DNA of 64,000 nt from Escherichia phage finno, in the sequence record MN850619.1. The stretch is one strand, 5' to 3'. The notes below the pieces were generated by a model. It was not told the origin of the DNA. It was given only the letters and a program-made list of their open reading frames with translations, and did no database searches. The first letter of the stretch is position 1, and every line of letters begins with the position of its first letter. The translations under genes and the position numbers were made by a program. Shown here piece after piece: positions 1-62,659 of the stretch.

Positions 1-1377
1 AGCAGAAAACCCCGCAAATCGGGTAACTTTATCTTTATTTGTTGGTTTAGCTCTTGCACGATAGCCTTTCTCGGCAAGTTTCCTGATGAGGGATGTTGCG
101 TAGGATTTACCAGCAGCGCCTGGGTCTTGAGGGATAAAAATACCAGTTCGCTTACCGTCACTTTCAGCAGTCAAATTAATTTGTGTTTCGACTCCAGAGG
201 GTCTATCTCTAAATCTTACTACATCAATGATATAATAGCAACCGTCTTTTTTAGATTTACCCATCTTAACACCTGCTGTCCAGTCTGGATTAGGGTTAAT
301 TTCAGATGGTAAAGTTGCTGCTAAGTCCCATGCTCTAACATCAAATACATCCTCTGGGAGTGAATCAACAATTTCACACCATTGTCTTTGCCAGTAGTTT
401 GAACCTTCTGCACGAGCCTTCCAGTTACCGAAACGAAGTCTTGCAACGTTTACAGGGGTGTTGTTTTCCAACTTACCACGGTACTTAGGTTCTAAGAAGT
501 CAAGAATTGGGTTATCATCAATCGTACCAGAGATGAAGGTATATGTTTGAGGAATCTCAAGAGGGAACATTTCAAGAATCTTGTCTCTCTCCCAATCAGA
601 AACCATCACACCATCATTCATTACATACCAACGAATACGACCACACTTTTCAGGGTCTGGATAACCTTCTTCATCTAAGAATGGTTCTACCCAATCATAA
701 ATAAAGTGGTCTCTGTCTGGGTTCATGGAAATCTTCATGTATGAATCGCCTTCAGCACCAGAACGTAAACGGGTTTGTAGGTATGAAATCTGTGAAGCAG
801 AGAAGTGTGTACCTTCGTCAAAGTAAATAGCTGAGTATTCAATACCCTGATGACCTTCAGCGTGCTTTTCAAGTTCTAGATAGGTAAACTTGATAGTCGC
901 CCCAGAAGGGAATGTGATAGTCATTTTCTGCTCGTGAGGAATCCCACCAAACTTACCAAATAGTTTCTTTGCAGCAGGCCATAAACCACCTTGTAACTGT
1001 GTTGTGTTTCGACGGAAATACACAGCATTATAGTTAGGGTCTTCAATAAATCTTAAAGAGTCCATTAACAATGCAGCAGTCTTACCAGCACCAGCAGCAC
1101 CACCATAGAGAACCAAGTCAGCATTAGTGTTTAAAAAGACCTCTTGAGAACCCGGCTGAGGGGCTACATAGTTCTTATCAGTCATCAACTTAAAGATGAG
1201 GCGAACTTGGTCTGGTGTGTATCTTAATAAAGTCAGAATTTGAGTTGGAAGGAATTTAGAGGGGTCTTTACCGAATGATTTGATAATTTCTTTTACTTCA
1301 TCAGAAAGCCCCAACTCTCCAGCTAGGACTTTCCTAACATCTTCCACTCGCTTCTGCTTAACAGCATTTAAGTCCAT
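1..1377 (-). CDS. terL: Terminase large subunit (C-terminus runs off window start)
   Basis: Minus-strand ORF with ATG at 1375-1377 and GGAGG RBS upstream; translation MDLNAVKQKR...LVLYGGAAGAGKTAALL has a Walker A P-loop and typical terminase ATPase/nuclease layout; open to position 1. Confidence 0.8.
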   Translation of the reverse strand, partial: MDLNAVKQKRVEDVRKVLAGELGLSDEVKEIIKSFGKDPSKFLPTQILTLLRYTPDQVRLIFKLMTDKNYVAPQPGSQEVFLNTNADLVLYGGAAGAGKTAALLMDSLRFIEDPNYNAVYFRRNTTQLQGGLWPAAKKLFGKFGGIPHEQKMTITFPSGATIKFTYLELEKHAEGHQGIEYSAIYFDEGTHFSASQISYLQTRLRSGAEGDSYMKISMNPDRDHFIYDWVEPFLDEEGYPDPEKCGRIRWYVMNDGVMVSDWERDKILEMFPLEIPQTYTFISGTIDDNPILDFLEPKYRGKLENNTPVNVARLRFGNWKARAEGSNYWQRQWCEIVDSLPEDVFDVRAWDLAATLPSEINPNPDWTAGVKMGKSKKDGCYYIIDVVRFRDRPSGVETQINLTAESDGKRTGIFIPQDPGAAGKSYATSLIRKLAEKGYRARAKPTNKDKVTRFAGFSA

Positions 1378-3739: not shown

Positions 3740-3758
3740 CTAAATAGCCTCTTAAAAT

Positions 3759-3836
3759 TGGTGTTCCAAGACGGATTCGAACCGTCACTAATACAAGGTT
3801 TGAGCTTGCATCCTCTGCCAATTGGGATACTGGAAC
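3759..3836 (-). tRNA. tRNA, anticodon region reads CAA (Leu-type) but class I length; tentative
   Basis: T-arm GACGG-ATTCGAA-CCGTC, acceptor GTTCCAA/CTGGAAC, anticodon loop CUCAAAC, 6-nt variable loop. Confidence 0.6.
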
Positions 3837-3837
3837 A

Positions 3838-3912
3838 TGGTACTCACTAAAGGACTTGAACCTTTTTCTTCATCTTGTAAGGGTGATGTTTTACCATATA
3901 AACTAAGCGAGT
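3838..3912 (-). tRNA. tRNA-Val (anticodon UAC), tentative
   Basis: T-arm AAAGG-ACTTGAA-CCTTT, acceptor pairs 7/7 with one G-U, anticodon loop CUUACAA. Confidence 0.65.
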
Positions 3913-4007
3913 GTGAAAGAGGTCTGAAGTTGTGCCGCTAACTCAACTCCGTGGAATTTGTTACGGTCTTCAGTTGACACCAGCGGTCTTTCACTTGACC
4001 TCTGAAT

Positions 4008-4084
4008 TGGTGCTGCTCACAGGACTCGAACCTGCATTTCCATCCTTACAAGGGATGTGTAATAGCCAATTATACGAAAGCAGC
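4008..4084 (-). tRNA. tRNA-Thr (anticodon UGU)
   Basis: T-arm ACAGG-ACTCGAA-CCTGC, perfect anticodon stem CATCC/GGATG, loop CUUGUAA. Confidence 0.8.
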
Positions 4085-4090
4085 ATTGTT

Positions 4091-4165
4091 TGGAGCATCC
4101 AGAGGGAATCGAACCCTCAACCTCAGTTTGGAAGACTGTAATTTTCCCGTTTAAACTATGGATGC
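4091..4165 (-). tRNA. tRNA-Gly (anticodon UCC)
   Basis: T-arm GAGGG-AATCGAA-CCCTC, perfect acceptor GCATCCA/TGGATGC, loop CUUCCAA. Confidence 0.75.
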
Positions 4166-4171
4166 GCTAAT

Positions 4172-4247
4172 TGGTGGAGTCACTGAGAATTGAACTCAGT
4201 TCCCAAGTTTGCAAAACTCGAATTTTAACCATATAAACTATGACCCC
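4172..4247 (-). tRNA. tRNA-Ala (anticodon UGC)
   Basis: T-arm CTGAG-AATTGAA-CTCAG, anticodon stem CAAGT/ACTCG, loop UUUGCAA. Confidence 0.8.
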
Positions 4248-4253
4248 AATGTC

Positions 4254-4329
4254 TGGTACAGGTGGAGGGAATTGAACCCGTCGTCTTACTGATTAAGAGT
4301 CAGCCGCATAACCATTTTGCTACACCTGC
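4254..4329 (-). tRNA. tRNA-Lys (anticodon CUU), tentative
   Basis: T-loop AATTGAA, acceptor ACAGGTG/CACCTGC, anticodon loop CUCUUAA; close paralog of the tRNA at 5569-5644. Confidence 0.65.
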
Positions 4330-4336
4330 ATTAATT

Positions 4337-4414
4337 TGGTAGGAGACAAGGGATTCGAACCCTCAAACATCTCGTTCTAAGCGAGATAGGTTTACCAATT
4401 ACCGTCAACCTCCC
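4337..4414 (-). tRNA. tRNA, anticodon region reads UAG (Leu-type) but class I length; tentative
   Basis: T-arm AAGGG-ATTCGAA-CCCTC, perfect anticodon stem TCTCG/CGAGA with loop CUUAGAA, acceptor pairs with three G-U. Confidence 0.6.
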
Positions 4415-4668
4415 ATTAAGTCTTTTTAGAGAACTTCTAAGAACCTAAGCAACAAGGTTCCACAACAAGCTGTAATAACCTTAGAAGCCCTCTAAAAAGA
4501 CCTAAAAAGGTCTTTGCATAGTCTTGTTTAATCCGGTGACTAGAACCTTTGGAGAGCTTGATATTATCTCTTCTCCGTGACACCTACTAGGTGCTTTATC
4601 AGTGTGTACGACAATACACGAGGGATACCAAAGCAACATCCGAATGAAGCTTGGCTTTAAATCTTATT

Positions 4669-4759
4669 AGGCGGTAAGTAAAGGAGTCGAACCCTCACCG
4701 TATCTCTACAGTGGCAACAGTTTTCAAGACTGTTTGGCTGCCATTAGCCGCTACCTACC
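4669..4759 (-). tRNA. tRNA-Ser (anticodon UGA), class II
   Basis: T-loop AGTCGAA, perfect anticodon stem ACAGT/ACTGT, loop CUUGAAA, about 20-nt variable arm; CCA apparently not encoded. Confidence 0.75.
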
Positions 4760-4772
4760 CCTAATAAGACTT

Positions 4773-4855
4773 TGGCATGGGACGGAGGAGTTGAACCCCT
4801 TTGAAACGGTTTTGGAGGCCGTTGCTCATGCCTTAGAGTCTTAACATCGTCCCAC
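4773..4855 (-). tRNA. tRNA (83 nt with CCA; anticodon not resolved)
   Basis: T-arm GGAGG-AGTTGAA-CCCCT and complementary acceptor ATGGGAC/GTCCCAC; the internal fold could not be resolved by eye. Confidence 0.5.
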
Positions 4856-4997
4856 ACTATAATTCGAAGCTCACCGTATTATCTCAACACTGTAAAGCCC
4901 CTTCTCAGATTATTTACATGTTCTGGAAAACATGAGATACAGACCACCTCCCTACAGGAAGACCCGCTTAGGTCGTCTAAGTAATCTGCTAACTAAT

Positions 4998-5074
4998 TGG
5001 CACACCCTACAGGATTCGAACCTGTAACTAACGATTTAGAAGACCGTTGCTCTATCCAATTGAACTAAGGGTGC
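4998..5074 (-). tRNA. tRNA-Arg (anticodon UCU)
   Basis: T-arm ACAGG-ATTCGAA-CCTGT, anticodon stem ACGAT/ACCGT, loop CUUCUAA. Confidence 0.8.
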
Positions 5075-5410
5075 ATTAATCTTTAAAAACTCTCTTAGAA
5101 AGCCCTTAAAGATGCCCACCTTATTAATCATACCGTGGGCGAGTACGCCAAATTCTTTGATGAGGGATTGGAAGACCTCACTGGTGTTTAGCCTATCAAG
5201 CTACTGCCAGAAAAACATTGTCGTTTGCATTTATTTTAAATTTGCAAAATAGACGCTACGCAACGAAAACTATTCAGAATATGTACAACAAATTTCCCCA
5301 CATTGTGTTACGTCTAACGCTCATGTATTGGTGTTTGAATTATACATATTATGAAGTATTTTAGTTACTATAAAGTAGTCACATCTCAATGTCAACAACT
5401 TTATTGAAAT

Positions 5411-5486
5411 TGGTACTGGTAGGTGGAATCGAACCACCGATGTTCCCTTATCAGGGGAGTGTTATAACCTTCTTAACTATACCAGC
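5411..5486 (-). tRNA. tRNA-Ile (anticodon GAU), tentative
   Basis: T-arm GGTGG-AATCGAA-CCACC, acceptor ACTGGTA/TACCAGC, loop CUGAUAA. Confidence 0.7.
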
Positions 5487-5487
5487 T

Positions 5488-5564
5488 TGGAGGTTCAGAT
5501 GGGAATCGAACCCACATTCATAGGGCTTATGAGACCCTTGCATTACCTTATCTGCGACTGAACC
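5488..5564 (-). tRNA. tRNA with CAU anticodon (Met, initiator or lysidine-Ile not distinguished)
   Basis: T-arm ATGGG-AATCGAA-CCCAC, perfect acceptor GGTTCAG/CTGAACC, loop CUCAUAA. Confidence 0.7.
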
Positions 5565-5568
5565 ATTT

Positions 5569-5644
5569 TGGTAGAAGTGGAGGGATTCGAACCCATCGCC
5601 TGTCAGATTAAAAGTCTGCCGCATCACCATTCTGCTACACTTCC
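5569..5644 (-). tRNA. tRNA-Lys (anticodon UUU), tentative
   Basis: Paralog of the tRNA at 4254-4329; loop CUUUUAA; acceptor AGAAGTG/CACTTCC. Confidence 0.7.
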
Positions 5645-5844
5645 ATTAAATTATCTTTGTAGATAAGCTACCCAGACTTGCTTAAGGTCTGTAGCGATGT
5701 GCCTTTTTGGGTTTAAATCTAGAATTTACCCTTTCACCCTTTGTGGTCGCATACTCACAGGTAAGCTTAATAACTTATCTACAAAGATAATTACCAGACC
5801 GTTGTTTATCATCTTAAGTGCTACCATTACACCAACTCGACCTC

Positions 5845-5920
5845 TGCCGAGTGAAGGAATCGAACCTTCCCATTTTCTTTACCGAGAAATAGATTGTTTA
5901 AGTTTTGCTGTAAACGGTCT
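5845..5920 (-). tRNA. tRNA-like element (canonical T-arm only); possibly degenerate
   Basis: T-arm GAAGG-AATCGAA-CCTTC is present but no complementary 5' acceptor or clean anticodon arm was found. Confidence 0.3.
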
Positions 5921-6075
5921 TCTGTAAATTTGTTGAGCCAGACCAAGTTTTAAATTTTTTCAAAATTGAATTGGCTTGAAAATATCATACGTACTTGCTG
6001 TATTTGGTCTTCTGCTCCTTTAAAGAATACTCGTAAGAACTCTTTAAGGGAGGGGCTAAATAGCCCTCTCAAAAT

Positions 6076-6154
6076 TGGCGGTTACGAAGGGATTTGAACC
6101 CTCATCATCTCCCGTGACAGGGGAGTATTTTAACCAAAATTAAACTACATAACC
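6076..6154 (-). tRNA. tRNA-Asp (anticodon GUC)
   Basis: T-arm AAGGG-ATTTGAA-CCCTC, perfect anticodon stem CTCCC/GGGAG, loop CUGUCAC. Confidence 0.8.
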
Positions 6155-6159
6155 TTTAT

Positions 6160-6247
6160 TGGTGTGCCGTGTAGGAGTCGAACCTACCGAGTCTCAATGA
6201 CAAGGGATTTACAGTCCCCACCGCTACCATCTACGGGATAACGACAC
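6160..6247 (-). tRNA. tRNA-Tyr (anticodon GUA), class II
   Basis: T-arm GTAGG-AGTCGAA-CCTAC, 15-nt variable arm, anticodon stem AGGGA/TCCCC, loop CUGUAAA. Confidence 0.75.
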
Positions 6248-6316
6248 ATTTAATTTCTATTCAGGCTAAGGACTTGCACCTTACAAATCGGTGAGCAATC
6301 GCTTCTCTCCTAAATT

Positions 6317-6393
6317 TGGCGGTTAGTCAGGGATTCGAACCCTGTGCCATTCGCTTAACAGGCGACCGCACATACCTTATGTGCTTCCTAACC
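6317..6393 (-). tRNA. tRNA-Asn (anticodon GUU)
   Basis: T-arm CAGGG-ATTCGAA-CCCTG, loop CUGUUAA. Confidence 0.75.
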
Positions 6394-6476
6394 ATGTTTA
6401 GTATTACCAGACCGTATCTTTCAATTTTTCCGCTAAAAATTTAATAAATATTGCTGTAAACGGTCTTCTGTAAATT

Positions 6477-6553
6477 TGGAGGCGGGTGCAGGAGTCGAAC
6501 CTGCCGATACCATGCTAATGAGACATGTGAGACGCCCTTTCTCTATACCCGCA
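6477..6553 (-). tRNA. Second tRNA with CAU anticodon (Met/fMet/Ile2 not distinguished)
   Basis: T-arm GCAGG-AGTCGAA-CCTGC, anticodon stem CATGC/ACATG, loop CUCAUUA; apparent U1-C72 mismatch. Confidence 0.6.
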
Positions 6554-6644
6554 ATTCTTAATGACCAGACCAAATCTCTTCTTTGTCCGATTTACCTTCA
6601 GATGAATAAGATTAAGTTTGCTGTAATTGGTCTTCTGTCAAAAC

Positions 6645-6722
6645 TGGCGTTCCAGAAGGGATTTGAACCCTCAGATATCCACTTTGAAAGAGTGGTGACT
6701 TTACCATTTTGTCTACTGGAAC
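6645..6722 (-). tRNA. tRNA-Glu (anticodon UUC)
   Basis: T-arm AAGGG-ATTTGAA-CCCTC, perfect acceptor GTTCCAG/CTGGAAC, perfect anticodon stem CCACT/AGTGG, loop CUUUCAA. Confidence 0.8.
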
Positions 6723-6729
6723 ATTAATT

Positions 6730-6806
6730 TGGTCTCTGTTGGAGGACTTGAACCTCCGGCCTTACCGCCCCAAACGGAACGCTCTACCAAGCTGAGCTAA
6801 ACAGAG
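6730..6806 (-). tRNA. tRNA-Pro (anticodon UGG)
   Basis: T-arm GGAGG-ACTTGAA-CCTCC, perfect acceptor and D-stem, loop UUUGGGG with G37. Confidence 0.8.
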
Positions 6807-6971
6807 ATAAACTTTTCAAACTCTATGTAACCACTTTAACATTATTTTTTAGTGATTGTCAAGAACTTTTTTAAAATATTTTTCAGTATCTTAGAAAAGC
6901 TCTCGTTTCGTTTCTATGTAGAACATATTAAAGGGTATCAAACACATTGTCAATACCCTTTTTAAAACTTT

Positions 6972-8387
6972 TTACCAGATATAACGGTCAATCATTACTG
7001 CTTTGAGCATTACGCTGATTGGGTCAAACTTCTCACCACCAAGTAGAGCTTTTAAAGTGGCTGGAGAGAAACCAGATACCATTGCTACACCGTTATCCTT
7101 AACAGATACTTCGCAAGTGCCATTACGGTTTGCTAAGTACCAGAATACCAATTGTGGCATCTCATATCCAGCTTTTTTGTACTTGCTCTGAATTGCTTCA
7201 AAGTTTGTACGACCGTTAGCTCCATCAACCTGATTGAACTCCATATCAGAGAAGATGATAAGCTTACTTGGCATATCTTTCTGAGTCAAGTTGTTTCTTT
7301 TACCTGTCTCAAGAATGCGGTCAAAAGCTGCTTGTAAGTTAGTTGAGCCATATTCAACGTGTCGCATCACCTGACGATGACGGTTTCGTAAATCACCACT
7401 CAGTTCGATGAAGTGAGGGTTTGTTGAATAAACCATTAACTCGTTCTTAAAGCAACCTGTATTGCGTTCTGCTACATACAATGCAAGTGATACACCAATA
7501 TCAAGAGCAGTAATTGAACCAAAATTCACCCAAGACATTGAGCTTGAAACATCAGTCATACACAAGATGTTTTCACCTTCTGCCATCCAGTTTGGTAGTG
7601 CTTTCCACTGCTCATTGGCAACATCTGCATTACCATGCTTGATAGACTTAATCACATCGTATGGGTAAACAGCACCAGCGTTAATCTTAGTCTCACCTTT
7701 TGATAAGGACTCAATGTAAGCTTTGTAGCGTTCTCCATCTTTACGGTTAAACAGTTTTTGGTAACGTGCAGCAGCAAGTGAAGGAATCTTACTGTAGTCA
7801 ATCTTACCAAACTCATTAGCAGAGATTTTTTGCTCAACTGTATCAGATAGTGCAGACAACAGTGTGCGGTACTCTTTCTCACTCAAGTTGGCAAACTTGC
7901 AGAAACGTTTTACAAACTGTTTGTGACGTGGTTTGACTCGTGGTAACCACTTAGCTGCCAAACCTGCTGTTGCAGGGTCTAGTAATGCTGCTTCTAAATG
8001 TTTGAAGGCATCTGTCTCGAAGCGAGTGCCTACGAAGATTTTGAAGTCATCAAAACGACCAAGTTCTGCAATCTTATCCATAATGCGAAGAACCTGTGTA
8101 GGCTCTAAAACTTTATCTTCAATTGCCTGAAGCAAAACAGTTCTGAAGGCTTTACGCTCACCCATACCCTCTCGTACATCTCGCATATGCAGTAAAATAC
8201 GAACTGCAACATCAACATCCTCACGCAAAGCTTTGTAGAACAGGTCTGGTAAGATTTCTACGTTGCTACGGCTTGAACCAGCAGCTTTGTAAAAGTCCAC
8301 AAGAGCAGACATTGATGAAGTATGGTTTACAGCACCATTTTCAGTTCGACCTGCATGAAGGTGCGCATGTTTAAATAATTCGCTCAT
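6972..8387 (-). CDS. vWA-domain protein (MIDAS-like DVSSSMS); possibly DUF2828/TROVE (Ro60)-like
   Basis: 471 aa ORF; N-terminal TENGA...SALVDFYKAAGS stretch and a central DxSxS metal-site motif followed by a vWA-like region; family assignment from motif recollection only. Confidence 0.5.
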   Translation of the reverse strand: MSELFKHAHLHAGRTENGAVNHTSSMSALVDFYKAAGSSRSNVEILPDLFYKALREDVDVAVRILLHMRDVREGMGERKAFRTVLLQAIEDKVLEPTQVLRIMDKIAELGRFDDFKIFVGTRFETDAFKHLEAALLDPATAGLAAKWLPRVKPRHKQFVKRFCKFANLSEKEYRTLLSALSDTVEQKISANEFGKIDYSKIPSLAAARYQKLFNRKDGERYKAYIESLSKGETKINAGAVYPYDVIKSIKHGNADVANEQWKALPNWMAEGENILCMTDVSSSMSWVNFGSITALDIGVSLALYVAERNTGCFKNELMVYSTNPHFIELSGDLRNRHRQVMRHVEYGSTNLQAAFDRILETGKRNNLTQKDMPSKLIIFSDMEFNQVDGANGRTNFEAIQSKYKKAGYEMPQLVFWYLANRNGTCEVSVKDNGVAMVSGFSPATLKALLGGEKFDPISVMLKAVMIDRYIW

Positions 8388-8468: not shown

Positions 8469-8840
8469 TTATTTTTTGAGAGTCGCTACAGCAGAGAACG
8501 TTGGTTTGTTATCTGTCTGTGGCTGACCACCATTATCAGGGGTTTTCTTAGTGTCTGCTGCAAGTGCTTTCATCTCACCTGCTGAGTGAGTAAAGATGGT
8601 TTTACCGACCTCAATCATACTCTTGATGGTTACGTCGTCTGTGTTTAACCCGAACTCTGCAAGCTTAGCAGCGTCCCTTGTAACAATCGCCTCAAACAGT
8701 TTTGCAGCAAACTCAGCAGAATTATCAATGGTCAGTTGAGCTTTTACAAGTGAGCTTTTGTTACGAGAGCCTTTTGGTCTTCCAGATGGGTTTCCAGATT
8801 GGCCTTTTTTAAACTGGCCTTTGTTTGTTCTGTTTTTCAT
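8469..8840 (-). CDS. Hypothetical protein with basic GNPSGRPKGSRNK motif (putative DNA-binding)
   Basis: 123 aa ORF; N-terminal KGQSGNPSGRPKG motif; last gene before the strand switch. Confidence 0.45.
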   Translation of the reverse strand: MKNRTNKGQFKKGQSGNPSGRPKGSRNKSSLVKAQLTIDNSAEFAAKLFEAIVTRDAAKLAEFGLNTDDVTIKSMIEVGKTIFTHSAGEMKALAADTKKTPDNGGQPQTDNKPTFSAVATLKK

Positions 8841-12113: not shown

Positions 12114-12512
12114 ATGAAACTTTGGGCTAGTGACTTTGGAACTTTTAAGTACACTCGTAATGGCTCGCTTGTACGTATTGTCGGAAACAATGTGGTTTCA
12201 AGAGGTGACAAGGTATATACACGGTTTACTGTAGAGCTTGTTGAGTTGTCACCTATTGAGTCTGTGAACAATGGCCTCTTCAAGTTTGAGACTTACAATG
12301 TTAATGAACATGGACAATTCAACCCTCTTGGTGAAAGTGGACTTGATATTATTTCAGAGCACCCATTGACAAAAGAGCAACTCGCAAGTTATTATAAAAC
12401 TGTTCTGGAAAGGCAGTTAGCAACACATGAACAAGAAGCTAACTATCATTTACAACATTGCGAAGCTTTAAGAGCAAAAATCGAACAAGCAGAGAGAGGT
12501 TTTTATGAATAA
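12114..12512 (+). CDS. Hypothetical protein
   Basis: 132 aa ORF with AAGGAGA RBS. Confidence 0.5.
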   Translation: MKLWASDFGTFKYTRNGSLVRIVGNNVVSRGDKVYTRFTVELVELSPIESVNNGLFKFETYNVNEHGQFNPLGESGLDIISEHPLTKEQLASYYKTVLERQLATHEQEANYHLQHCEALRAKIEQAERGFYE

Positions 12513-12900
12513 TATCAGTCAGATTAAAGTTAAAGTCGATGTTAGCCGTTACAGTGGAGATGAAGAATTAGACCTGCGAGATGCGATTCTCTATGAGAAG
12601 AATGGTAATCTTCATTTACATTTTGAAGACACAAACACATATCTACACAGATGTCGAGATGATGTAGATGGTTGTCCTGTTTTTGCTTGGTATAATTTAG
12701 AGTTACCTCTTTATGCAATCCACTATCCAGATGGTGGGGAAGACTGGACTACTCAATCAATCTTTGATGAGCTTAACGGTATTCCAGTTGAGCAAGAAGA
12801 GCAAGAACCCGTTGAACTTACCTTCACTTTTATCAAAGAAGAGAAAGTAGGTGACTTGTCAGTAACCGAAGCAATTCAAGTCTCACAGGTTATTCGTTAA
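12505..12900 (+). CDS. Hypothetical acidic protein
   Basis: 131 aa ORF, overlapping start/stop. Confidence 0.5.
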   Translation: MNNISQIKVKVDVSRYSGDEELDLRDAILYEKNGNLHLHFEDTNTYLHRCRDDVDGCPVFAWYNLELPLYAIHYPDGGEDWTTQSIFDELNGIPVEQEEQEPVELTFTFIKEEKVGDLSVTEAIQVSQVIR

Positions 12901-13193
12901 TGAGCAAAGTACAGGTTGTTTTCCCTATTTGTGACTTCTCACTAGAGCGTGAACTTGACCTGTACGAAGAAATTACTGACGAAATTATCTGGTCTGTTGT
13001 AGAAGAGGCTATCAAGAAACTATATGGTGGCCTCTTAAACCCATCAAGTAAAAAGCTCAATACTAAACAAGTAGCTGATACATACACTTCCTATGATGCC
13101 TACAACAAACCTTTTGAGAATACCTGCTTTGACCTTATGGTAGGCAATAACAAAGTCAACTATTTCTTCGTCAGAGAGTTTAACGATGAGTAA
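12900..13193 (+). CDS. Hypothetical protein
   Basis: 97 aa ORF, ATGA overlap with upstream stop. Confidence 0.45.
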   Translation: MSKVQVVFPICDFSLERELDLYEEITDEIIWSVVEEAIKKLYGGLLNPSSKKLNTKQVADTYTSYDAYNKPFENTCFDLMVGNNKVNYFFVREFNDE

Positions 13194-13530
13194 GCTCCAT
13201 GTCACAGTTTACAAAAACTTCGCAGATATCAAAGAGTCTTTAACAAATAAGCTTGACTTACAACGTAAAAGACTCTTTTTAATGTATGACATAGACAACT
13301 ACAACCATCCTAAAGAGTTTAACTACAAAGATGGTACAAAGGTCGTTGAATTTGAAGATTCTGTGACGGTGTATGTCAAATATGACTTACCAGCAAAGTA
13401 CATAGGGATGTTAGAGTATTACATATTCAAACATACAGGTATGCGTGGTGAAGCTGTCAAGATATCTTCTATAGAAGTTTTTGAGAAACCTAACACACAA
13501 CTTAAAAAGTATTTAATGAGGAAACTGTAA
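13186..13530 (+). CDS. Hypothetical protein
   Basis: 114 aa ORF. Confidence 0.45.
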   Translation: MSKLHVTVYKNFADIKESLTNKLDLQRKRLFLMYDIDNYNHPKEFNYKDGTKVVEFEDSVTVYVKYDLPAKYIGMLEYYIFKHTGMRGEAVKISSIEVFEKPNTQLKKYLMRKL

Positions 13531-14111
13531 TGTCCGAAGAGCAACAGGATATCATTCCACAAGTAACACTTGTACAACACTTTGGAAATATTGAAGGGTG
13601 TGTTGCACTTTTTCAACCGAGTATCAATTCCCCTGCAAAAGTTTGCAAGTTGACTATGAATGTTAATAACATTAGTGTCTGCCTTGTTGATGAAGTCCAG
13701 TACTTCAAGTTTAATGACAGAGAAGTTGATGCTGCACTTTTGAAGTATCGAGCTAGTCTCGAAAAAGATATTGACCACAAAGAACTTGTAACACTGTTTG
13801 GTGACCTTCACAAGCTTCTTGAAAAAGTTATGAAGCGCACATACTACATGAACAATGGCTCAATTATCACCACTTTGATTTCACCATGTATTTCAGAGCC
13901 AATTTTAACTGATGACGGTGGATACTACGTGGTAGCATCAGCAGACCCTGATTGGTGGATGAAGAACACAGCACTTAAGACGGTTATCGAGGCTATCCGT
14001 GAACATATCCCTTCATTCAGCCCGTGGAAAGGTAAAAGTGATGATTTTATCGCACTATTGAGTGAAGAGAGTAACAAGCGCAGTGCATTACTGCCTAAAA
14101 AATACTCTTGA
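13530..14111 (+). CDS. Hypothetical protein
   Basis: 193 aa ORF. Confidence 0.5.
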   Translation: MSEEQQDIIPQVTLVQHFGNIEGCVALFQPSINSPAKVCKLTMNVNNISVCLVDEVQYFKFNDREVDAALLKYRASLEKDIDHKELVTLFGDLHKLLEKVMKRTYYMNNGSIITTLISPCISEPILTDDGGYYVVASADPDWWMKNTALKTVIEAIREHIPSFSPWKGKSDDFIALLSEESNKRSALLPKKYS

Positions 14112-16824: not shown

Positions 16825-16835
16825 AATATCTTAAG

Positions 16836-16866
16836 AGCCTCCTTAATTGGGGGCTTTTTAATTTTT
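16836..16866 (+). terminator. Putative rho-independent terminator ending the plus-strand block
   Basis: AGCCTCC-ttaatt-GGGGGCT hairpin followed by TTTTTAATTTTT. Confidence 0.55.
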
Positions 16867-16869
16867 ATA

Positions 16870-18380
16870 AAATTTTATCGGTTGTCCCAACCTCTGGGTC
16901 ACCATCATATGTGAACAAAATATCTATCCTTCTTAACAACCTTCTTAATCTTACTCTCTATATAGTTATATAGTACTATATAGTATCTTAGTAACTATCT
17001 AGTGGTCTTAATAGCCCTCTGTATAACCCTTCTAACAAGCCCTCTAACAAGCCTTCTTAACAACCTATACAATCACCTTAACCATCCCTCTATACCCTCT
17101 TAGAAGCTCCTATACACCTCTTAATCTCTATGTCAGCTATGACACTCTCTATAGGTGTTCACTAGGTATTACTAAGCCTCTATATAGACTGTTTTAACAA
17201 ACTTAACAGGAATATCTTCACAGACCTTATCTCACAAGGTCTAACACGGTACTAACAAGGTATCTTATAAGCCTGTTTCTACCTGTATTTTTAAAAGACT
17301 GTCTAGGTAATTATTCAGAATTTTAAAATTTTTATAAAATAGGACTATCAAGTCATTTTTTAGGGTCTTTGAAGGAACTGAAAAATATCTGATTAGGATG
17401 TATATCTGCTTGGTAGCCCTTAACATCCCTGTAACATCCCCTTTGCAGAATTTTAAAATATCATTAACAATCTCTTAACAGTTATTACATCTTCTTAACA
17501 TCTCTTCAGAGGTCTTAACAGTTTATTAACAGAACTAACAAGGGTTTAACAGTTTTCTAACAAGTGCTGGATAGTCTTTACAGATGCTTAACAGATGACT
17601 AACAAGAGCTAACAAGTTAATTTTAAAGGGTTATTTTGTTAAGATAATTAACAAGTTTCTAACAAGTGTTTAATCTTTTTAACAAGCTATTAACATGGTC
17701 ACTACTCTTTTCTTATCGTTCCCTCCCCTTTCTTAGTGATTCTTTAAACATACCTCTTAAAAGCTCTGTATAGCTCTGTATAGCCCCTTTTAAGTTTCTT
17801 CCTAGTAACTACAGCCCAACTGTACAGATAGCTCTTTATAGGGCTTTACAGGGGCTTTAAAGGCTATGTCAAAGGTTCTTACAAGGCTTTTACATGGTTG
17901 TAACAGAGATTTAACAAGGGGCTAACAAGTTGCTAACAAGCATAACTATGTAGGATTTGTTAAGAAATTGTTAAGAAAATGTTAAGGGGGCTAGCATTTA
18001 CGTAACTTTTAAGCTACTTCAAAGTAACTTTTAAGCCCCTATAACATGCTTTTAAGACACTAACAAGCCCTTTTTAGTTATTCACAAGATAGCTAACGAG
18101 ATAATAAAGCTTACACCCTTATAAGATTCTTTTAAGGCTCTGAGAAGCTTTATAAAGGGCTTTTAAGGGTGAGGTAATGCAATCCCTTAAGTTAGGTTGA
18201 TAAGGCTGTTATAGGGCGTTATAGAGCGTTTAAGCGGTTACCCTTCCCTCTCGGGTTATGGGCTTATATTTAAGTTGATTTGATAAAAGGCTATAGAGTA
18301 GACTATAGAGTTATTGCTTTTTAAGGTCTGATAAGATTCTGGAAAGGAAAGGGAAAGGGTTGTATAAGGGATTTGATAGA
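16870..18380. repeat. ORF-free region packed with about 30 YTAACA(R)G motifs plus CTATAG/TATAG repeats; candidate origin or protein-binding array
   Basis: Examples: CTAACAAGCCCTCTAACAAGCCTTCTTAACAACC at ~17030; eight copies within 17460-17570; no ORF of 60 aa or more in 1.5 kb. Confidence 0.6.
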
Positions 18381-18386
18381 CGTAAA

Positions 18387-18436
18387 AAAGCCCCTATGGG
18401 AAAGGGGCTGTAAAGGTATCTGGGGCTAAATAGCCC
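18387..18436 (-). terminator. Terminator hairpins ending the minus-strand small-gene array
   Basis: Minus-sense AGCCCCTTTCCCATAGGGGCT followed by TTTTTT, plus a second GGGGCT-aaat-AGCCCC hairpin. Confidence 0.55.
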
Positions 18437-18447
18437 CGCTGCGTCGA

Positions 18448-18696
18448 TTAGTTGCAACCTTGTTTGTTGTAGTACAGGGAGACAATTTTTTCTCCCCAAT
18501 AGTGATAAGTATAACCATCCTTAAGAACTTCCTGTTTTGTTTCCTCCCAGAACTCCTCCGAAGGATTATATCCTTTGATAGTCTGACTGATAAGACCTTT
18601 CACCATTTCAAAGGCGTTATCAGTGCCTACGATGTCAAATTTAACATCCAGAGAGGAAAAACCGAACTCGTTAACAGTAGCGCGGATAGTTGCCAT
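18448..18696 (-). CDS. Hypothetical small early protein
   Basis: 82 aa ORF preceded by a conserved leader with AGGAGA RBS. Confidence 0.55.
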   Translation of the reverse strand: MATIRATVNEFGFSSLDVKFDIVGTDNAFEMVKGLISQTIKGYNPSEEFWEETKQEVLKDGYTYHYWGEKIVSLYYNKQGCN

Positions 18697-18790
18697 TTTT
18701 GAATCTCCTAGTTTAAGGGTTTTATTTAGTGGGGAGGTTGTCGCCTCCCGTTGATTAGTAATTTACTGCATGTTGGCGTATGTTGCAAGC
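18697..18790 (-). promoter_or_regulatory. Repeated promoter/leader element, type 1 (TTGCAA-N17-TAAATT, GGGAGG..CCTCCC hairpin, SD)
   Basis: Minus sense: TTGCAAcatacgccaacatgcagTAAATTACTAATCAACGGGAGGcgacaaCCTCCCCACTAAATAAAACCCTTAAACTAGGAGATTCAAAAATG. Confidence 0.55.
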
Positions 18791-19840: not shown

Positions 19841-20227
19841 TTAACTGATGAATATTTTTTCAGGCTTTACGTAGCTGATGCGTTGGTTTTTTAGCAGGTC
19901 ATCCCAGATTAACGCGGCGATATGGGAATAACCGGATTCACGTAATAACTTCATCGTTTTACATCTCGTTTCAAATCGGGTTGCGTAGTACTCGCTATTT
20001 AAAACCGTTTTAGTCCCTTCGTTATCTGTATGGATAATCTGCATCACTTGGAAGGGGCTTACATCCTCACCTTTATTCCATTGCTCAAAGTATTTTAGAC
20101 AATGCATAGGTGTCATCTTATCACTTACTTGAGTTGACCAAGATGAATCCGGTTTATTGGTAATTACAGTTACATAAGCCATTTTTTGAATCTCCAGTTT
20201 AGGATTTTGTTTAGTGGGGAAGGTCAT
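19841..20227 (-). CDS. Hypothetical early protein
   Basis: 128 aa ORF. Confidence 0.55.
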   Translation of the reverse strand: MTFPTKQNPKLEIQKMAYVTVITNKPDSSWSTQVSDKMTPMHCLKYFEQWNKGEDVSPFQVMQIIHTDNEGTKTVLNSEYYATRFETRCKTMKLLRESGYSHIAALIWDDLLKNQRISYVKPEKIFIS

Positions 20228-20300
20228 TCCCTCCCCGTTGATTAGTAATTTACAGATTTTTATCAGGCTTGTCTAGTCTTTTTCTATAATTATTTCATAT
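20228..20300 (-). promoter_or_regulatory. Repeated promoter/leader element, type 1
   Basis: TTGAATCTCCAGTTTAGGATTTTGTTTAGTGGGGAAGGTCATTCCCTCCCCGTTGATTAGTAATTTACAG. Confidence 0.5.
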
Positions 20301-40924: not shown

Positions 40925-43069
40925 TTACATAGAAATCCTGTCACGAATCTCAGCGATTTTTGCATCGTTCATTCGGGATTCACCTTTAATCTTAGTCCAT
41001 CCCAGATATCCGCACACCCTGTTAATCACAGAGATATCATGTGAATGACAAACCTCACATTCTTCGACATCAGCCTTTGGTCTGTTACCACAATGTTCAC
41101 AGATTGCTAAGTCAAAGTTAAGACCTTGATAGAAACCTTTCAACATCCCTCTTGTAATACAACTCTTAAGTGCTGATAAGTTTTCTGGATTAGCCACCCT
41201 TACATACTGGATTCTGCCGCCTCTACAGATATGGAAGAAGGGTTCTTCTAAGTCCTGCTTCTCAAATGGTGTAATGTCTGCTGCAACATTCATATGGAAG
41301 CTGTTTGTAAAGTATTCCTTATCAGAAACACCTTTGATAACGCCAAACATATCTCTGAACTGTTTTAGCTGAGTTCCACAAAGTGATTCTGCTGGAGTGC
41401 CATAGACTGCATATAAGAAGCCATCTTCATTTTTAAACTCTTCAGTCTTCATGTTGATATATTCCAGAACATCATATGCAAAACTACAGCTTCCAACTTC
41501 ATGAAGTCGTTTACCTTCAGCAAGAACAGATAGCTCATCAAGCGCAGTAACCCCAAAAGAAGCTGTGAAGGACTTCACGATATCCCAGCCAACCTTGTCA
41601 GTAGGCTTCTTATTCCCTTTGTACAGACCACCTTGTGTGAATGCAAGAGGGTTAGAACTTGCTGGCATATTAGCAATCATTTCGTAGCGTTTCTTGTGGA
41701 AGCTGCGAATCATTTCTAGGTACTTATCAAGCTCTTTCCAGAAATCTAAACCATTCTCTTTAGAATACTGGTAAATCATTGGCAAGTTCAAAGATACAGC
41801 ACCAATGTTAGCACGACCAACGTAGAACTCTTCCCCATCCTCATTAAGATATGGAGATAAGAAGGCTCTACAACCCATCGGCGAAATTACCTTGCCAGAA
41901 CGCTCAAAAGCTTCTGCTACAGCACCATGACCAGATACACTTAAGAAATCTGGATACATTGCTTTAGAGCAACACTCTATAGCTTTACTGTACAGGTGGC
42001 CTTGACAGATATTCTCATTATGTCTCTTCTGGTCATAAATATAAACCAGTTTAGGGAATACAACAGGTTTCTTGCTCTTACCTTGTCCATTCATACGAAC
42101 ATCTAGGAGAGTACTTGCAATCATATATTGCAGTCGGTTATCTTCATTGGACATATCTGAGTCAAGTAACCCGAATGTCAAAGTTGTGAATGCAAAATCC
42201 CCACGGCTACAAGGTACAGTATTTAGCTTCATTTCAAGTGACTGGAAACCTTGAGTTAGTTCAATCTGTAGCTGCTCCATGACATAATTATGGTAATGTT
42301 CTTTAGGAATACCATACGATGCTGCTTTCTCAGCATGATAGCGTAGAGACTTCTTAGCATACGGTACAAGTACCTTATCAATCTCTGCTAAAGTAAAGCC
42401 ACCAAATTGCTGTGCAGTTGCTGAAAGAACTACGTCACCAATAACCTGTAAGGCCGACAGCACAGACTTTGGTTCACAATATTCGATGCCAGACATTTCA
42501 AAGCCACCTTTCAGGACTTTACCAATGTCAAACAGGCAACAGTTGATACCACCAAAAATTAGGTCTCTTAAATCATGGATATAGATAAACCCTTTTTCAA
42601 TGGCTTCAAGTTCCTCTGGTGTTAAATGGTACTGTTTAAAGATTTCTTTAGTCAGATAACCACGAATAATTGAGCCTTTTGTAGAAATTAAACTGCTGTC
42701 AAAATTAGCGTTTTCTCGGTCACCTAAGAAGAGTGTATCCTTGGTCTTCTGGTAGAGTTCATCCCAATTTTGAGCAACCTCTTTACGGTAATTTCTATAT
42801 GTTGAGTAAGACTCATAAATCTCGTGATTGACTTCTGCCAAAGCACCCTCAACAATACTGTGAATATCATTTACAGAAATTAGCAAATTATTCTGCTTAG
42901 TGGACTTTACCAGAATCCTCATAAATGCTGACTCAAGAGCTTGGGTAACATCTGGTGGGAGTTCTTTATACCCAACCCTATTAGCTGACTTTGTGACTGC
43001 TGCTAAAACTTTTTTGATATCAGGTTCTTCGAGTGAGCCATTCTTTTTAATAATCTGTACTTTGTTCAT
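40925..43069 (-). CDS. nrdD: Anaerobic ribonucleoside-triphosphate reductase (class III RNR)
   Basis: 714 aa; C-terminal CEHCGNRPK...CEVCHSHD zinc site and RVCGYLG glycyl-radical motif. Confidence 0.9.
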   Translation of the reverse strand: MNKVQIIKKNGSLEEPDIKKVLAAVTKSANRVGYKELPPDVTQALESAFMRILVKSTKQNNLLISVNDIHSIVEGALAEVNHEIYESYSTYRNYRKEVAQNWDELYQKTKDTLFLGDRENANFDSSLISTKGSIIRGYLTKEIFKQYHLTPEELEAIEKGFIYIHDLRDLIFGGINCCLFDIGKVLKGGFEMSGIEYCEPKSVLSALQVIGDVVLSATAQQFGGFTLAEIDKVLVPYAKKSLRYHAEKAASYGIPKEHYHNYVMEQLQIELTQGFQSLEMKLNTVPCSRGDFAFTTLTFGLLDSDMSNEDNRLQYMIASTLLDVRMNGQGKSKKPVVFPKLVYIYDQKRHNENICQGHLYSKAIECCSKAMYPDFLSVSGHGAVAEAFERSGKVISPMGCRAFLSPYLNEDGEEFYVGRANIGAVSLNLPMIYQYSKENGLDFWKELDKYLEMIRSFHKKRYEMIANMPASSNPLAFTQGGLYKGNKKPTDKVGWDIVKSFTASFGVTALDELSVLAEGKRLHEVGSCSFAYDVLEYINMKTEEFKNEDGFLYAVYGTPAESLCGTQLKQFRDMFGVIKGVSDKEYFTNSFHMNVAADITPFEKQDLEEPFFHICRGGRIQYVRVANPENLSALKSCITRGMLKGFYQGLNFDLAICEHCGNRPKADVEECEVCHSHDISVINRVCGYLGWTKIKGESRMNDAKIAEIRDRISM

Positions 43070-43084
43070 TATTGCCCCTTTACA

Positions 43085-43115
43085 TGCTAAAAAGGTCTCC
43101 GAAGAGACCCTTTCA
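43085..43115 (-). terminator. Rho-independent terminator upstream of nrdD
   Basis: Minus-sense GGTCTCTTCGGAGACC followed by TTTTTTAGC. Confidence 0.6.
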
Positions 43116-43117
43116 TT

Positions 43118-43324
43118 TTAAATCTTTTTAGAAAACTTCGCAAAGAGTTCTCTTAGTTTTTCAGTGATACCTAACTGTATCTCTAATATTTCAAAGATAA
43201 CCCATAGTAACATGGCTCCAAACAATGAACCTTGTTCAAAGTCAGTAAATAGGTTAACAATAAGCATACCAATCACAATAGCTGGTGCATCAACAACCAA
43301 ACCTTCCCAAAGGCGTTTAAGCAT
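43118..43324 (-). CDS. Hypothetical small membrane protein
   Basis: 68 aa; hydrophobic core. Confidence 0.45.
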   Translation of the reverse strand: MLKRLWEGLVVDAPAIVIGMLIVNLFTDFEQGSLFGAMLLWVIFEILEIQLGITEKLRELFAKFSKKI

Positions 43325-43559
43325 TATTCACCTCTGCCATAAAATTCTGTAGCGTACCAACAGGTTTTAGGTTTTGTCCATCAGTTTTCATGATGAATGG
43401 CATCTGACGAACTGGCATCTGTGCAATATCCATCAGGTCTGATAGCTCATAGTCCTGCCCTAACATTCTCACAACATGGTCAATACCACGAGCTTTTGCA
43501 AAATTCTTTGCAGTCTCACACTGAGGGCATCCAGTTTTGGAGTAAATTACATAAGTCAT
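43317..43559 (-). CDS. Glutaredoxin/thioredoxin-like redoxin (CPQC active site)
   Basis: 80 aa; YSKTGCPQCETAK is a glutaredoxin-type CxxC motif; adjacent to the RNR genes. Confidence 0.8.
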   Translation of the reverse strand: MTYVIYSKTGCPQCETAKNFAKARGIDHVVRMLGQDYELSDLMDIAQMPVRQMPFIMKTDGQNLKPVGTLQNFMAEVNNA

Positions 43560-44632
43560 TAAGGAACCTCTAAAAATCCACTATTCAAATCATCTACAAC
43601 AGTATTCAATAGGTACGCACCGTTCTGTTGCTCCTGATTAGCATTCTGCTCTTTATCAATTTCCATCTTCTTAATCATGTACTTCAAAGGTGGTTCTTTA
43701 GGAGCTACAAAATCTCTGGGAATGCCAAACATATCATACAATGGGGCGGCATTATAGTAAACCCACTCATGAAGAAGCTTTGTATTTAGGCCAACTACAG
43801 CACGTCCTTCGGAGAAGATATAATACGACCATTTCTCTTCACTTTCAACTACTTCATCTAAGATTACTTTAATCTCTGGAAGAATTTGTTGAAAAGCTTT
43901 CTGCCACTCATCATCTCTTAAAGTTTCTTTTAAAACTTCAATATCAATTTTAGTGTGAAGGATTTCGTCAAGCATAATTTTCTGTACCGCTTGAGCAATA
44001 CCCTGAAATTTATCTTGAGCATCAAGTGCAAAAGTACATGCAAAAGATGCCATAAAAGATATACCTTCAAGTGCAGTCACTGCAAACAGCCCTTTCAGAA
44101 TCACTTTATGGAAGTGTAAAGGGTCTTTGTCCAGAAGTGAATCACGAACATAACTCAGACGATAGTTTATACCTTCATCCAGTAATTCTTCAAGAACACG
44201 ATTCACAGTTTTTAATCGGTCTTGCACAGCAACATTCTGGTTAATCTCATCTAAGATTGTTTCAGGGTTTTTAATACATTGCCTTACAATCTCTGAGTAA
44301 GTAAGAGCATGTAGGTTTTCAATCTCAGATTGCTTCATAATTGCAGTTGCATATATGTCATCAGAGATAAAAGGTGCAAAGGCAAATGCCAAGCTCTTAG
44401 CAACTTGAGTGTCTGCTTCCCATTGCCACTTAAGAATCTCAAGCATTACACCTGACATTGATGCTGGGACACTCTCAAAATCAAGACGTGATTGTTCAAA
44501 AGGGAACTCATCTTCTGACCAGTCTTGTGCTTTTTGTTGTTTATAAAGTTCAAAGATTTTTGGGTAGTGTTTATTAAGTGAGTCAAAAGTTTTTCTCTCA
44601 CCACCTAAAAAGATTGGGTGCTGGTTAATCAT
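43559..44632 (-). CDS. nrdB: Ribonucleotide reductase class Ia small (beta) subunit
   Basis: 357 aa; ferritin-like di-iron layout and position next to nrdA. Confidence 0.85.
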   Translation of the reverse strand: MINQHPIFLGGERKTFDSLNKHYPKIFELYKQQKAQDWSEDEFPFEQSRLDFESVPASMSGVMLEILKWQWEADTQVAKSLAFAFAPFISDDIYATAIMKQSEIENLHALTYSEIVRQCIKNPETILDEINQNVAVQDRLKTVNRVLEELLDEGINYRLSYVRDSLLDKDPLHFHKVILKGLFAVTALEGISFMASFACTFALDAQDKFQGIAQAVQKIMLDEILHTKIDIEVLKETLRDDEWQKAFQQILPEIKVILDEVVESEEKWSYYIFSEGRAVVGLNTKLLHEWVYYNAAPLYDMFGIPRDFVAPKEPPLKYMIKKMEIDKEQNANQEQQNGAYLLNTVVDDLNSGFLEVP

Positions 44633-44889
44633 AGCGTGATTTCTCCTTTCTTTATCATTTCTAGGGCTTGTTTTCTGTCTAAAACTTCCCAGTTTTCTTT
44701 GTTAAACATCTCATAAGGTCTTGCGTAGATTTTACCATCTGCTGTAGAGATGTAAGAGATACCAGCAACCCATGAGTCATCATTTTGTTTTATCATCATA
44801 TCTGTGCTACTCACATAGTACATCGTTTTCCGAGGCTTGTGGAGCAAGTATATAGGCCGCTCATGTTTTTCTATTAAGTCTTTCATGGT
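44629..44889 (-). CDS. Hypothetical protein inserted between nrdA and nrdB
   Basis: ORF track 44629..44970; start trimmed to MKDLIEK (RBS GGAGA), since the longer N-terminus overlaps the nrdA 3' end. Confidence 0.45.
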   Translation of the reverse strand, partial: TMKDLIEKHERPIYLLHKPRKTMYYVSSTDMMIKQNDDSWVAGISYISTADGKIYARPYEMFNKENWEVLDRKQALEMIKKGEITL

Positions 44890-44941
44890 CTCTCCAAAGT
44901 TATTTTTAGAGGGTCTTTTACGACCCTCATAGTTGTTAAAA

Positions 44942-62154: not shown

Positions 62155-62367
62155 ATGGCTCTTAAAAAGTTACATCCCAGAAGCGGTTATGGTAAGATAA
62201 TTGATGATACAGACGGCTTTACAGTCTTTACAGTCATCTGTCAAGATGATTCACAGATTGAAAAGGCTCTTGATGATTATCTTAACGATGAACGTGAAAA
62301 GGTTAGGGCTACAAACATAGATTCATTGATTGACACTTCACGCAAACGGAAGAAGAAAGATGAATGA
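62155..62367 (+). CDS. Hypothetical small protein
   Basis: 70 aa ORF. Confidence 0.45.
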   Translation: MALKKLHPRSGYGKIIDDTDGFTVFTVICQDDSQIEKALDDYLNDEREKVRATNIDSLIDTSRKRKKKDE

Positions 62368-62659
62368 GGTTTTTGACCCTTATGCCCCACAAGATGATTG
62401 GGAGGCTGATAGAGAGGCTGAAATGGAGAGTTATATTTGTCCAATGGATGTAGACGAGATGAGAGATTTCGTTGCACATCGTTTTAAGAGAGAGATTAAA
62501 TCCAGAGGTCTTTCTCAAGAGCAAGTTGCTAAAATTTGTGGTATCTCTCAAGCTCGTGTATCCAACATAATCCACCTCACTGGGAATGTCTCTCTTGAGT
62601 ATATGTTGGGAGTCTGTGAAAAATTTGGTGTTAATTTTAATTTAAGGTTGGCAGATTAA
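62330..62659 (+). CDS. Putative helix-turn-helix DNA-binding protein
   Basis: 109 aa; LSQEQVAKICGISQARVSNI resembles an XRE-type HTH. Confidence 0.45.
   Translation: MTLHANGRRKMNEVFDPYAPQDDWEADREAEMESYICPMDVDEMRDFVAHRFKREIKSRGLSQEQVAKICGISQARVSNIIHLTGNVSLEYMLGVCEKFGVNFNLRLAD

Follow-up and report, generated by a model that had tools for sequence, protein, structure and literature searches.

What is the function of a 1.5-kb stretch of phage DNA that lacks open reading frames (ORFs) of any substantial length and is filled with short repeats? The question is raised by positions 16870-18380 of the Escherichia phage finno sequence (record MN850619.1), of which 64,000 nucleotides were analysed; this whole stretch is referred to here as the window. 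It is Felixounavirus DNA, that is, from a Felix O1-like myovirus. A first-pass annotation had taken the repeats for an array of binding sites for a DNA-binding protein, and suggested that the region could be a replication origin, a packaging or nicking region, or a regulatory hub. It had not recognised that a physical end of the genome lies here. Homology to relatives with mapped ends identifies the region as the junction of a direct terminal repeat (DTR) with its two flanks, and the repeats, which are phased with the DNA helix and conserved, may well mark the genome ends for the packaging machinery.

The terminal repeat and its boundaries

The sequence surrounding the repeats is shared by a large group of phages. 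A segment of 1.65 kb matches 254 phage records at 80–94% identity, nearly all of them from Felixounavirus or close relatives, with hosts in Escherichia, Salmonella, Shigella and Citrobacter. The counterpart in Felix O1 itself is found at 12303-13952, on the opposite strand. In the genome paper of that phage the sequence was opened at rIIA, 'short terminal repeats' were merely inferred, and the repeat region was not discussed (PMC3185647). No conserved gene is present in the region among the relatives' records inspected, some of which annotate only 'repeat_region' features or flanking terminators.

Several relatives provide direct information on where the chromosome ends. Phages D4 and SeKF_63 have 100%-identical repeats at both ends of their records (581 and 613 bp, respectively), which map to the DTR of the window, and D4 has been reported to have terminal repeats by PhageTerm. 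The records of H12, SPJ41 and NBEco005 begin exactly on one of the two DTR boundaries, and those of several relatives start or stop within the repeat region. Published PhageTerm analyses give DTRs of 581 bp in Pr103Blw and 613 bp in Ro111lw. For UAB_Phi87, Bal31 digestion combined with run-off sequencing demonstrated a DTR of 608 bp (PMC4837284); the homologous segment is 614 bp long in the alignment made here. Because the exact end repeats of relatives and the conserved boundaries map to this place, the region is read as a concatemer junction. By homology to these end-mapped relatives, 16870-18388 is the junction of the phage chromosome ends, made up of a left flank, the DTR and a right flank (Table 1). 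On the same grounds, these three parts are contiguous in replicating concatemers, as they are in the window. The window carries a single copy of the DTR, as expected of a concatemer-style or collapsed assembly.

Both boundaries are well defined. On the left, TGTATATCTGCTT (17399-17411) is followed by GGTAGCC, the fuller right-hand side being GGTAGCCCTTAACA / GGTAGCCC. On the right, ATGTTAAGGGGGC is followed by TAGC, so that the boundary falls between GGGGGC and TAGC. Neither varies among 12 genomes of Felixounavirus, Mooglevirus and Suspvirus, and related sequences are found at the boundaries of Erwinia phage M7 (Kolesnikvirus). The right boundary lies within a GCTAGC palindrome, and a related hexamer, GGTAGC, opens the DTR at 17412, with the left cut just before it. 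Measured against the hexamer, the cuts are offset from each other by 2 nt, perhaps because the cut is staggered.

Table 1. Features of the junction region and of the packaging genes (positions in the window; conservation from the 12-genome alignment)
Feature	Position	Strand	Remarks
Large terminase subunit (TerL)	1-1377	-	phrog_979, E = 8e-205; C-terminus cut off by window start
Candidate small terminase, 123 aa, Pfam DUF5681	8472-8840	-	E = 2e-14
Intrinsic-terminator-like hairpin	16833-16858	+	closes plus-strand lysis/small-gene block
Left non-coding flank	16870-17411		unique sequence; adjoins right-end DTR copy in mature genome
AT-rich segment, 25% GC, 122 bp	17290-17411		directly outside left DTR boundary; conservation 0.92-0.95
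DTR, 580 bp	17412-17991		starts GGTAGCCCTTAACAT, ends TGTTAAGGGGGC (window orientation); by homology to relatives
Main TAACA array	17421-17695	+	17 copies, mostly 11 bp apart; one inverted copy at 17637
TAACA quartet	17901-17938	+	four copies, exact 11-bp spacing
Three inverted copies (TTGTTAAGAAATTGTTAAGAAAATGTTAA)	17957-17985	+	end 6 bp from right terminus; nearly invariant in 12 genomes
GCTAGC palindrome (NheI-type)	17990-17995		spans right DTR boundary, cut between GC and TAGC; sole GCTAGC in 64-kb window
Right non-coding flank	17992-18388		adjoins left-end DTR copy in mature genome
Intrinsic-terminator-like hairpin	18389-18409	-	closes minus-strand small-gene array

Phased and conserved repeats at both ends

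The first-pass annotation counted about 30 copies of an octamer, YTAACARG. In its strict form the octamer occurs only 15 times in the region, and it is the pentamer TAACA that is the recurrent conserved unit. It occurs 31 times on the plus strand and five times on the minus strand of 16870-18380 (36 in all). This is a strand-biased, 14-fold enrichment, with 20.5 copies per kb in the region and 1.47 per kb elsewhere in the window, and no comparable cluster is found elsewhere in the 64 kb. A count no higher than in shuffled sequence had been named as refuting the observation; first-order Markov simulations of the region's composition give 3.05 ± 1.74 copies on the plus strand, with a maximum of 11. 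The clusters of CTATAG and TATAG that had also been noted are real, TATAG being present 12 times on the plus and 10 times on the minus strand where about 1.2 are expected (p = 4e-9); CTATA is strongly enriched too.

The spacing of the repeats had been described as irregular. In fact it is dominated by 11 bp: 12 neighbouring TAACA pairs on the same strand have a distance of exactly 11 bp, additional peaks falling at 20–22, 31–33 and 42 bp, and the entire 1.5 kb is periodic at 10–11 bp. At a lag of 11, the self-identity of the DTR is 0.45, compared to 0.268 ± 0.022 in the rest of the window, and it dips at half-period lags. Taking a helix of 10.5 bp per turn, the first 13 copies of the main array (17421-17610) all lie within approximately a quarter turn of one face. 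A CRISPR array had been dismissed because of the supposed irregularity. That dismissal stands, on the different ground of unit size, which also excludes simple tandem repeats: the region has 5-bp cores at periods of 10–12 bp, as against repeats of 24–48 bp that are evenly spaced by unique spacers.

The arrays are arranged with respect to the chromosome ends. Near the right end the orientation of the motif flips, and each physical end carries ATGTTAAGGG followed by 3–5 nt to the 3' terminus. Motifs are located within 10–30 bp of both physical ends, in inverted orientation. Outside the DTR, the left flank has eight copies of TAACA on the plus strand (16934-17253) together with clusters of CTATATAG and CTCTATAG. 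The right flank contains GTTATAG/CTATAGAG repeats with periods of 10–12 bp, and eight copies of CTTTTAAG/TTTAAG where 0.3 would be expected; TTTAAG is not preferentially conserved in the twelve-genome alignment.

By contrast with the spacers, the TAACA cores are strongly conserved. In the 12-genome alignment they are identical to the window in 95–97% of cells, compared to 85% elsewhere in the DTR (p = 2e-13), and within the main array the values are 0.97 for the cores and 0.85 for the spacers. The bases immediately flanking the core are conserved at background level, and since conservation falls off right outside the core, selection acts on exactly five base pairs. The TATAG/CTATA cores are conserved as well (0.96 compared to 0.88).

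The length of the repeat varies in a regular manner. In 48 records, DTR homologues cluster at 559, 569–571, 579–582, 589–592, 601–603 and 612–614 bp, whole 11-bp units being gained or lost with the phase kept. There is one outlier, of 651 bp. In phage M7 only 87 bases can be aligned to the window, and its 444-bp DTR nevertheless contains 20 copies of TAACA/TGTTA, with one orientation in the left half and the other in the right half. The comparison with related phages that had been recommended thus recovers the same motif array and the same boundaries, and it is this comparison that identifies the region as a DTR.

IMG/VR was also scanned for four TAACA motifs at 11-bp spacing, which gave at least 120 loci. 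Outside the Ounavirinae these are mostly plain 11-bp tandem repeats with identical spacers, and because such repeats dominate, the scan was set aside as uninformative on function. It is worth adding that many unrelated viral contigs (loci L022-L138) carry tandem repeats of this kind, such as TAACAAGTTCT and TAACAGGGACC, some of them in 10–20 copies, and that these may be iteron-type sites in other phages.

A proposed packaging role for the arrays, and alternatives

On the basis of these observations, we hypothesise that the phased arrays mark the genome ends for the terminase by serving as protein-binding sites, and that a DUF5681 protein encoded by the phage is the most likely binder; we consider this somewhat probable. 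One-per-turn direct repeats lying on one helical face, with a short conserved core, suggest cooperative binding by a sequence-specific protein, and since the arrays coincide with both cut sites, the junction is probably recognised and processed by the packaging machinery. Each TAACA pentamer would thus be bound by such a protein; most pentamers follow one another in direct orientation at one per helical turn, and TATAG, which is also conserved, goes with them. By binding cooperatively along one helical face, the protein would assemble into a nucleoprotein complex at the junction, marking it and positioning the terminase for cuts between TGTATATCTGCTT and GGTAGCC and between GGGGGC and TAGC. 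Nick-primed strand-displacement synthesis, proposed for T7, would afterwards duplicate the DTR. Two suggestions of the first-pass annotation fare well here. An array of protein-binding sites fits the conserved cores, variable spacers and helical phasing, and a packaging or nicking region is supported by the coincidence of the array with the DTR and its two conserved cleavage boundaries, which the arrays abut with an inverted terminal element.

A close parallel is T7, whose concatemer junction reportedly has arrays of short repeats (SRL and SRR) beside the terminal repeat. As in T7, the finno repeat is exact and non-coding, measures a few hundred bp and lies at ends that are probably non-permuted, with arrays of short motifs at or next to it, and the ends presumably arise from terminase cuts at two fixed sites followed by duplication of the repeat. 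Unlike in T7, the arrays fill the repeat itself and both flanks, and consist of a pentamer with strict 11-bp phasing and a change of orientation towards the ends; furthermore, finno is a myovirus with a Mu-like portal and has no phage RNA polymerase. Multiple short elements flanking a cleavage site are also familiar from pac and cos sites, namely the R sites of lambda cosB with IHF, the hexamer repeats of P1 pac, and the pacL and pacR boxes of SPP1. These are bound by the small terminase, sometimes together with a host bending protein, and position the nuclease. They comprise 3–7 elements in 100–200 bp, whereas finno has dozens over 1.5 kb, and finno has a DTR rather than cos or headful ends.

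The likeliest binder would be a small terminase, a subunit that has been missing from these phages: in the Felix O1-like genus only the large terminase is recognisable according to the literature (PMC4837284). We propose, from sequence comparisons, that the DUF5681 protein is the missing subunit. Its gene opens a minus-strand operon, which continues across the tRNA cluster as far as the TerL gene. The N-terminus contains an invariant sequence, FKKGQSGNPxGRPKGSRNK, of which GRPKGSRNK is AT-hook-like, by comparison with HMGA hooks. The structure model has a disordered arm followed by two long helices forming a helical hairpin (pLDDT 66). In the proposed complex, the protein would form an oligomer with AT-hook-like N-terminal arms, around which the phased sites are wrapped. 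Distant DUF5681 genes are found directly upstream of large terminase genes of two different PHROG families, in modules unrelated to each other: that of homologue P0046 overlaps a Terminase_6N/Terminase_3 gene, and that of P0055 precedes a phrog_38 large terminase (E = 2e-99). DUF5681 is mentioned in a single paper, without a function, and it may be an unrecognised family of small terminases. In the window, the DUF5681 gene and the gene for a 471-aa predicted RNA-binding protein (6975-8387) are separated from the TerL gene by the tRNA cluster, which lies at 3740-6970 on the minus strand and has approximately 22–24 genes in relatives.

A number of points weigh against this proposal. The assignment as a small terminase rests on the synteny of distant homologues, and in finno the DUF5681 gene is about 6.5 kb upstream of the TerL gene, with the tRNA cluster in between. 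The structure model is only moderately confident, and a Foldseek search with it against the PDB gave no match below E = 1, the small terminases of P74-26 and G20c appearing at E of about 4. AT-hook-type motifs recognise the minor groove of A/T sequence, and the TAACA core contains a G:C pair. A search around the distant DUF5681 genes turned up no TAACA array. With 36 sites over 1.5 kb, the region far exceeds any characterised pac or cos site. Finally, the ends of the finno genome are placed by means of boundaries conserved in relatives.

The most specific alternative is that the binder is the host regulator ArcA. ArcA-P binds direct repeats with a 5'-TGTTA-3' core spaced 11 bp centre to centre, and it does so cooperatively, on 2–5 repeats at 11 or 22 bp (PMC4173790, PMC3798270). 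Read on the other strand, TAACA is TGTTA, and the repeat geometry is identical to that of the phage arrays. The arrays would in this case be ArcA-P sites, acting either through ArcA-P as an architectural or end-organising factor at the terminal repeat, in the way that IHF serves lambda at cosB, or as a decoy of approximately 36 sites in each genome copy that titrates ArcA-P and so lifts the repression of host respiration at low oxygen, an explanation that we regard as unlikely. Also unlikely is its extension, in which ArcA-P would polymerise on both chromosome ends and, in step with the redox state of the gut host, have a role in end processing or concatemer formation, or in which the decoy would re-open respiration in the course of infection. 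A matrix of 18 bp was constructed from 115 E. coli ArcA boxes (Table S3), for which the training sites score 9.6–21.5 bits. In the region, 22 boxes reach 9 bits or more on this matrix. Eight of the nine boxes in the window that reach 15 bits fall there, and the inverted copies near the right terminus form two overlapping boxes whose scores, 22.5 and 22.7 bits, exceed that of the best training site. Relatives keep 6–9 boxes of at least 15 bits, and in M7 every one of the 17 boxes scoring 11 bits or more over 4,970 bp lies inside the DTR. The known hosts are all Enterobacterales, and the phage carries anaerobic ribonucleotide reductase genes. (These encode NrdD and a 4Fe-4S activase, at approximately 40928-47176 on the minus strand and in neighbouring genes, besides the aerobic class I subunits, and fit growth in anaerobic hosts.) An ArcA-like winged helix (OmpR/PhoB type) encoded by the phage itself was not detected in the six-frame translation of the window, the best match to an approximate profile of ArcA, OmpR and PhoB having E = 0.049. 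Whatever the primary binder, the published specificity predicts that ArcA-P would occupy the arrays unless it is excluded from them. However, the match is confined to the 5-bp core and the geometry. The flank preferences of ArcA (in the 10-bp element, A/T at position 1, A at 7 and A/T at 8–10) were considered as independent support and rejected, since the mean flank score of the phage sites (-1.09) is below that of random positions in the region (-0.86), compared to +2.06 for E. coli sites; positions 7–8 of the phage repeats are often G, a base that ArcA disfavours. Known E. coli sites (Park et al. 2013; Park & Kiley 2014) do share the TGTTA core, head to tail at 11 or 22 bp, with the phage, and several phage boxes score as well as or above the best chromosomal ones. 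They differ in having 2–5 repeats with A/T-rich flanks that overlap sigma-70 promoters, whereas the phage has about 36 repeats with G-containing flanks in non-transcribed, terminator-flanked terminal DNA, in which sigma-70 promoter-like sites are not enriched (9, compared to 6.9 ± 2.7 in shuffles). No paper linking Felix O1-like phages to ArcA was found in the literature searched. The likeness was moreover noticed post hoc, and we estimate the chance of a match to one of about a dozen host regulators that bind direct repeats at a few per cent.

The remaining explanations are less probable. That the region is or contains a replication origin, with iteron-like repeats bound by an initiator beside an AT-rich unwinding element, is improbable. 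The phased direct repeats do adjoin a 122-bp segment of 25% GC, the region is non-coding and conserved, and the right flank has a DnaA-box-like site (TTATTCACA, at 18078), one of just three in the window. One-turn-phased direct repeats, as in R1 parC, a centromere-like array of 11-bp repeats bound by ParR, and as in iteron origins, would support a cooperative protein filament or wrap. The finno arrays, however, have 5-bp cores with free spacers in place of an 11-bp iteron, and no partition or Rep gene was detected nearby in this strictly lytic phage. Against an origin, the repeats coincide exactly with the DTR and cut sites; their orientation flips towards both ends, which an origin would not require; no initiator-like gene was recognised next to them, the neighbours being without detectable function; and there is no enrichment of promoters for a transcription-primed origin. 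GC skew, recommended as a check, turns at approximately 17 kb, but this tracks the switch in gene strand and does not mark an origin. Despite the repeats beside an AT-rich segment, nothing specific supports the suggestion of the first-pass annotation that this is an origin. Its other suggestion, a regulatory hub, finds no support either: the region is insulated by terminators, promoters are not enriched, and a search of Rfam at E <= 1 gave no match, only three sub-threshold chance hits. A slim chance is left for a function at incoming or resident linear ends, where the arrays could pause ejection, shield the ends from RecBCD, or hold them together for concatemer formation. This would suit motifs 10–30 bp from both ends in inverted orientation, an early-type array of small genes just inside one end, and a window that has no Chi site. 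In T5, the terminal repeat has a non-coding, repeat-rich injection-stop region that is thought to control DNA ejection, and like that of T5 and BF23, the finno region is ORF-free over about 1.5 kb, rich in repeats and palindromes, associated with a terminal repeat, and equipped with boxes like those of host proteins. The T5 repeat is nevertheless approximately 10 kb long and contains genes, and two-step DNA transfer is not known for Felix O1-like phages, being unreported for Felix O1 in the literature examined. It is very improbable that the repeats arose neutrally in dispensable DNA, by slippage or unequal crossing-over, or that they encode a non-coding RNA or a gene disrupted by frameshifts. 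Copy number does vary by whole units among relatives, and some records have tiny ORFs annotated here. Neutral repeats would not be expected to keep their cores while the spacers drift, or to persist in the genus of M7, where almost no DNA is alignable; an RNA is at odds with the Rfam result and with terminators that point inward; and a protein missed through frameshifts, as the first-pass annotation had allowed, is incompatible with indels of 11 bp and with small ORFs that are not conserved between records.

We conclude that the region is largely explained as a genome terminus, the mechanistic detail being less settled. The terminal repeat of Felix O1-like phages has already been published, and T7 offers a precedent for repeat arrays next to such a repeat. 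Arrays of TAACA and TATAG that are dense, phased and conserved, their inverted arrangement at both ends and the match to an ArcA half-site appear to be undescribed in the literature searched, and so is a role of DUF5681 as small terminase. The reading offered here accounts for a conspicuous 1.5-kb 'empty' region that recurs in sequenced Felix O1-like phages, more than 250 in number. These phages are in wide use for typing Salmonella and E. coli and in biocontrol and therapy. The majority of the records were opened at arbitrary points and leave the region without annotation. The same reading pins the genome ends to exact positions, singles out a motif that should matter for packaging when mutated, and supplies a candidate small terminase gene for a genus that is said to have none. 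The ArcA explanation, if true, would make a host two-component regulator act on the end of a phage chromosome, of which no description was found in the literature searched.

Gene context and other features of the window

The claim that the region has no ORF of 60 aa or more holds for 16870-18310, which has ORFs of 33, 53 and 35 aa only. A TTG-initiated ORF of 62 aa (18311-18499) overlaps the right edge of the region, along with the terminator and the next gene there. The region does lie between convergent gene blocks, as had been observed, and each of these ends in a terminator-like hairpin that points inward. Ten neighbouring proteins were compared to Pfam and PHROG, and no function was detected for any of them.

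A dispersed intergenic repeat of approximately 55–110 bp occurs among the small minus-strand genes, at about 18690-18760 and 20178-20290. The public assembly EF202P1 and contigs of FSL SP-010 and SP-012 break at this repeat, which could be mistaken for a genome end. Breaks at approximately 18746 were considered as a terminus and rejected, being due to the dispersed repeat of about 55 bp combined with assembler overlap.

Two further features of the window are worth adding. An Xre-type helix-turn-helix (HTH) protein of 109 aa is encoded at 62330-62656 on the plus strand (HTH_3, E = 3e-9), and is the only clear DNA-binding regulator among the top 25 Pfam families matched in a scan of 96 ORFs. GATC is absent from the 64-kb window, where approximately 236 copies would be expected from trinucleotide frequencies, and CCGG (19 compared to 39 expected) and GGCC (35 compared to 55) are depleted by about half and about a third, respectively. 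This pattern suggests strong selection against recognition of the Dam, MboI or DpnII type.

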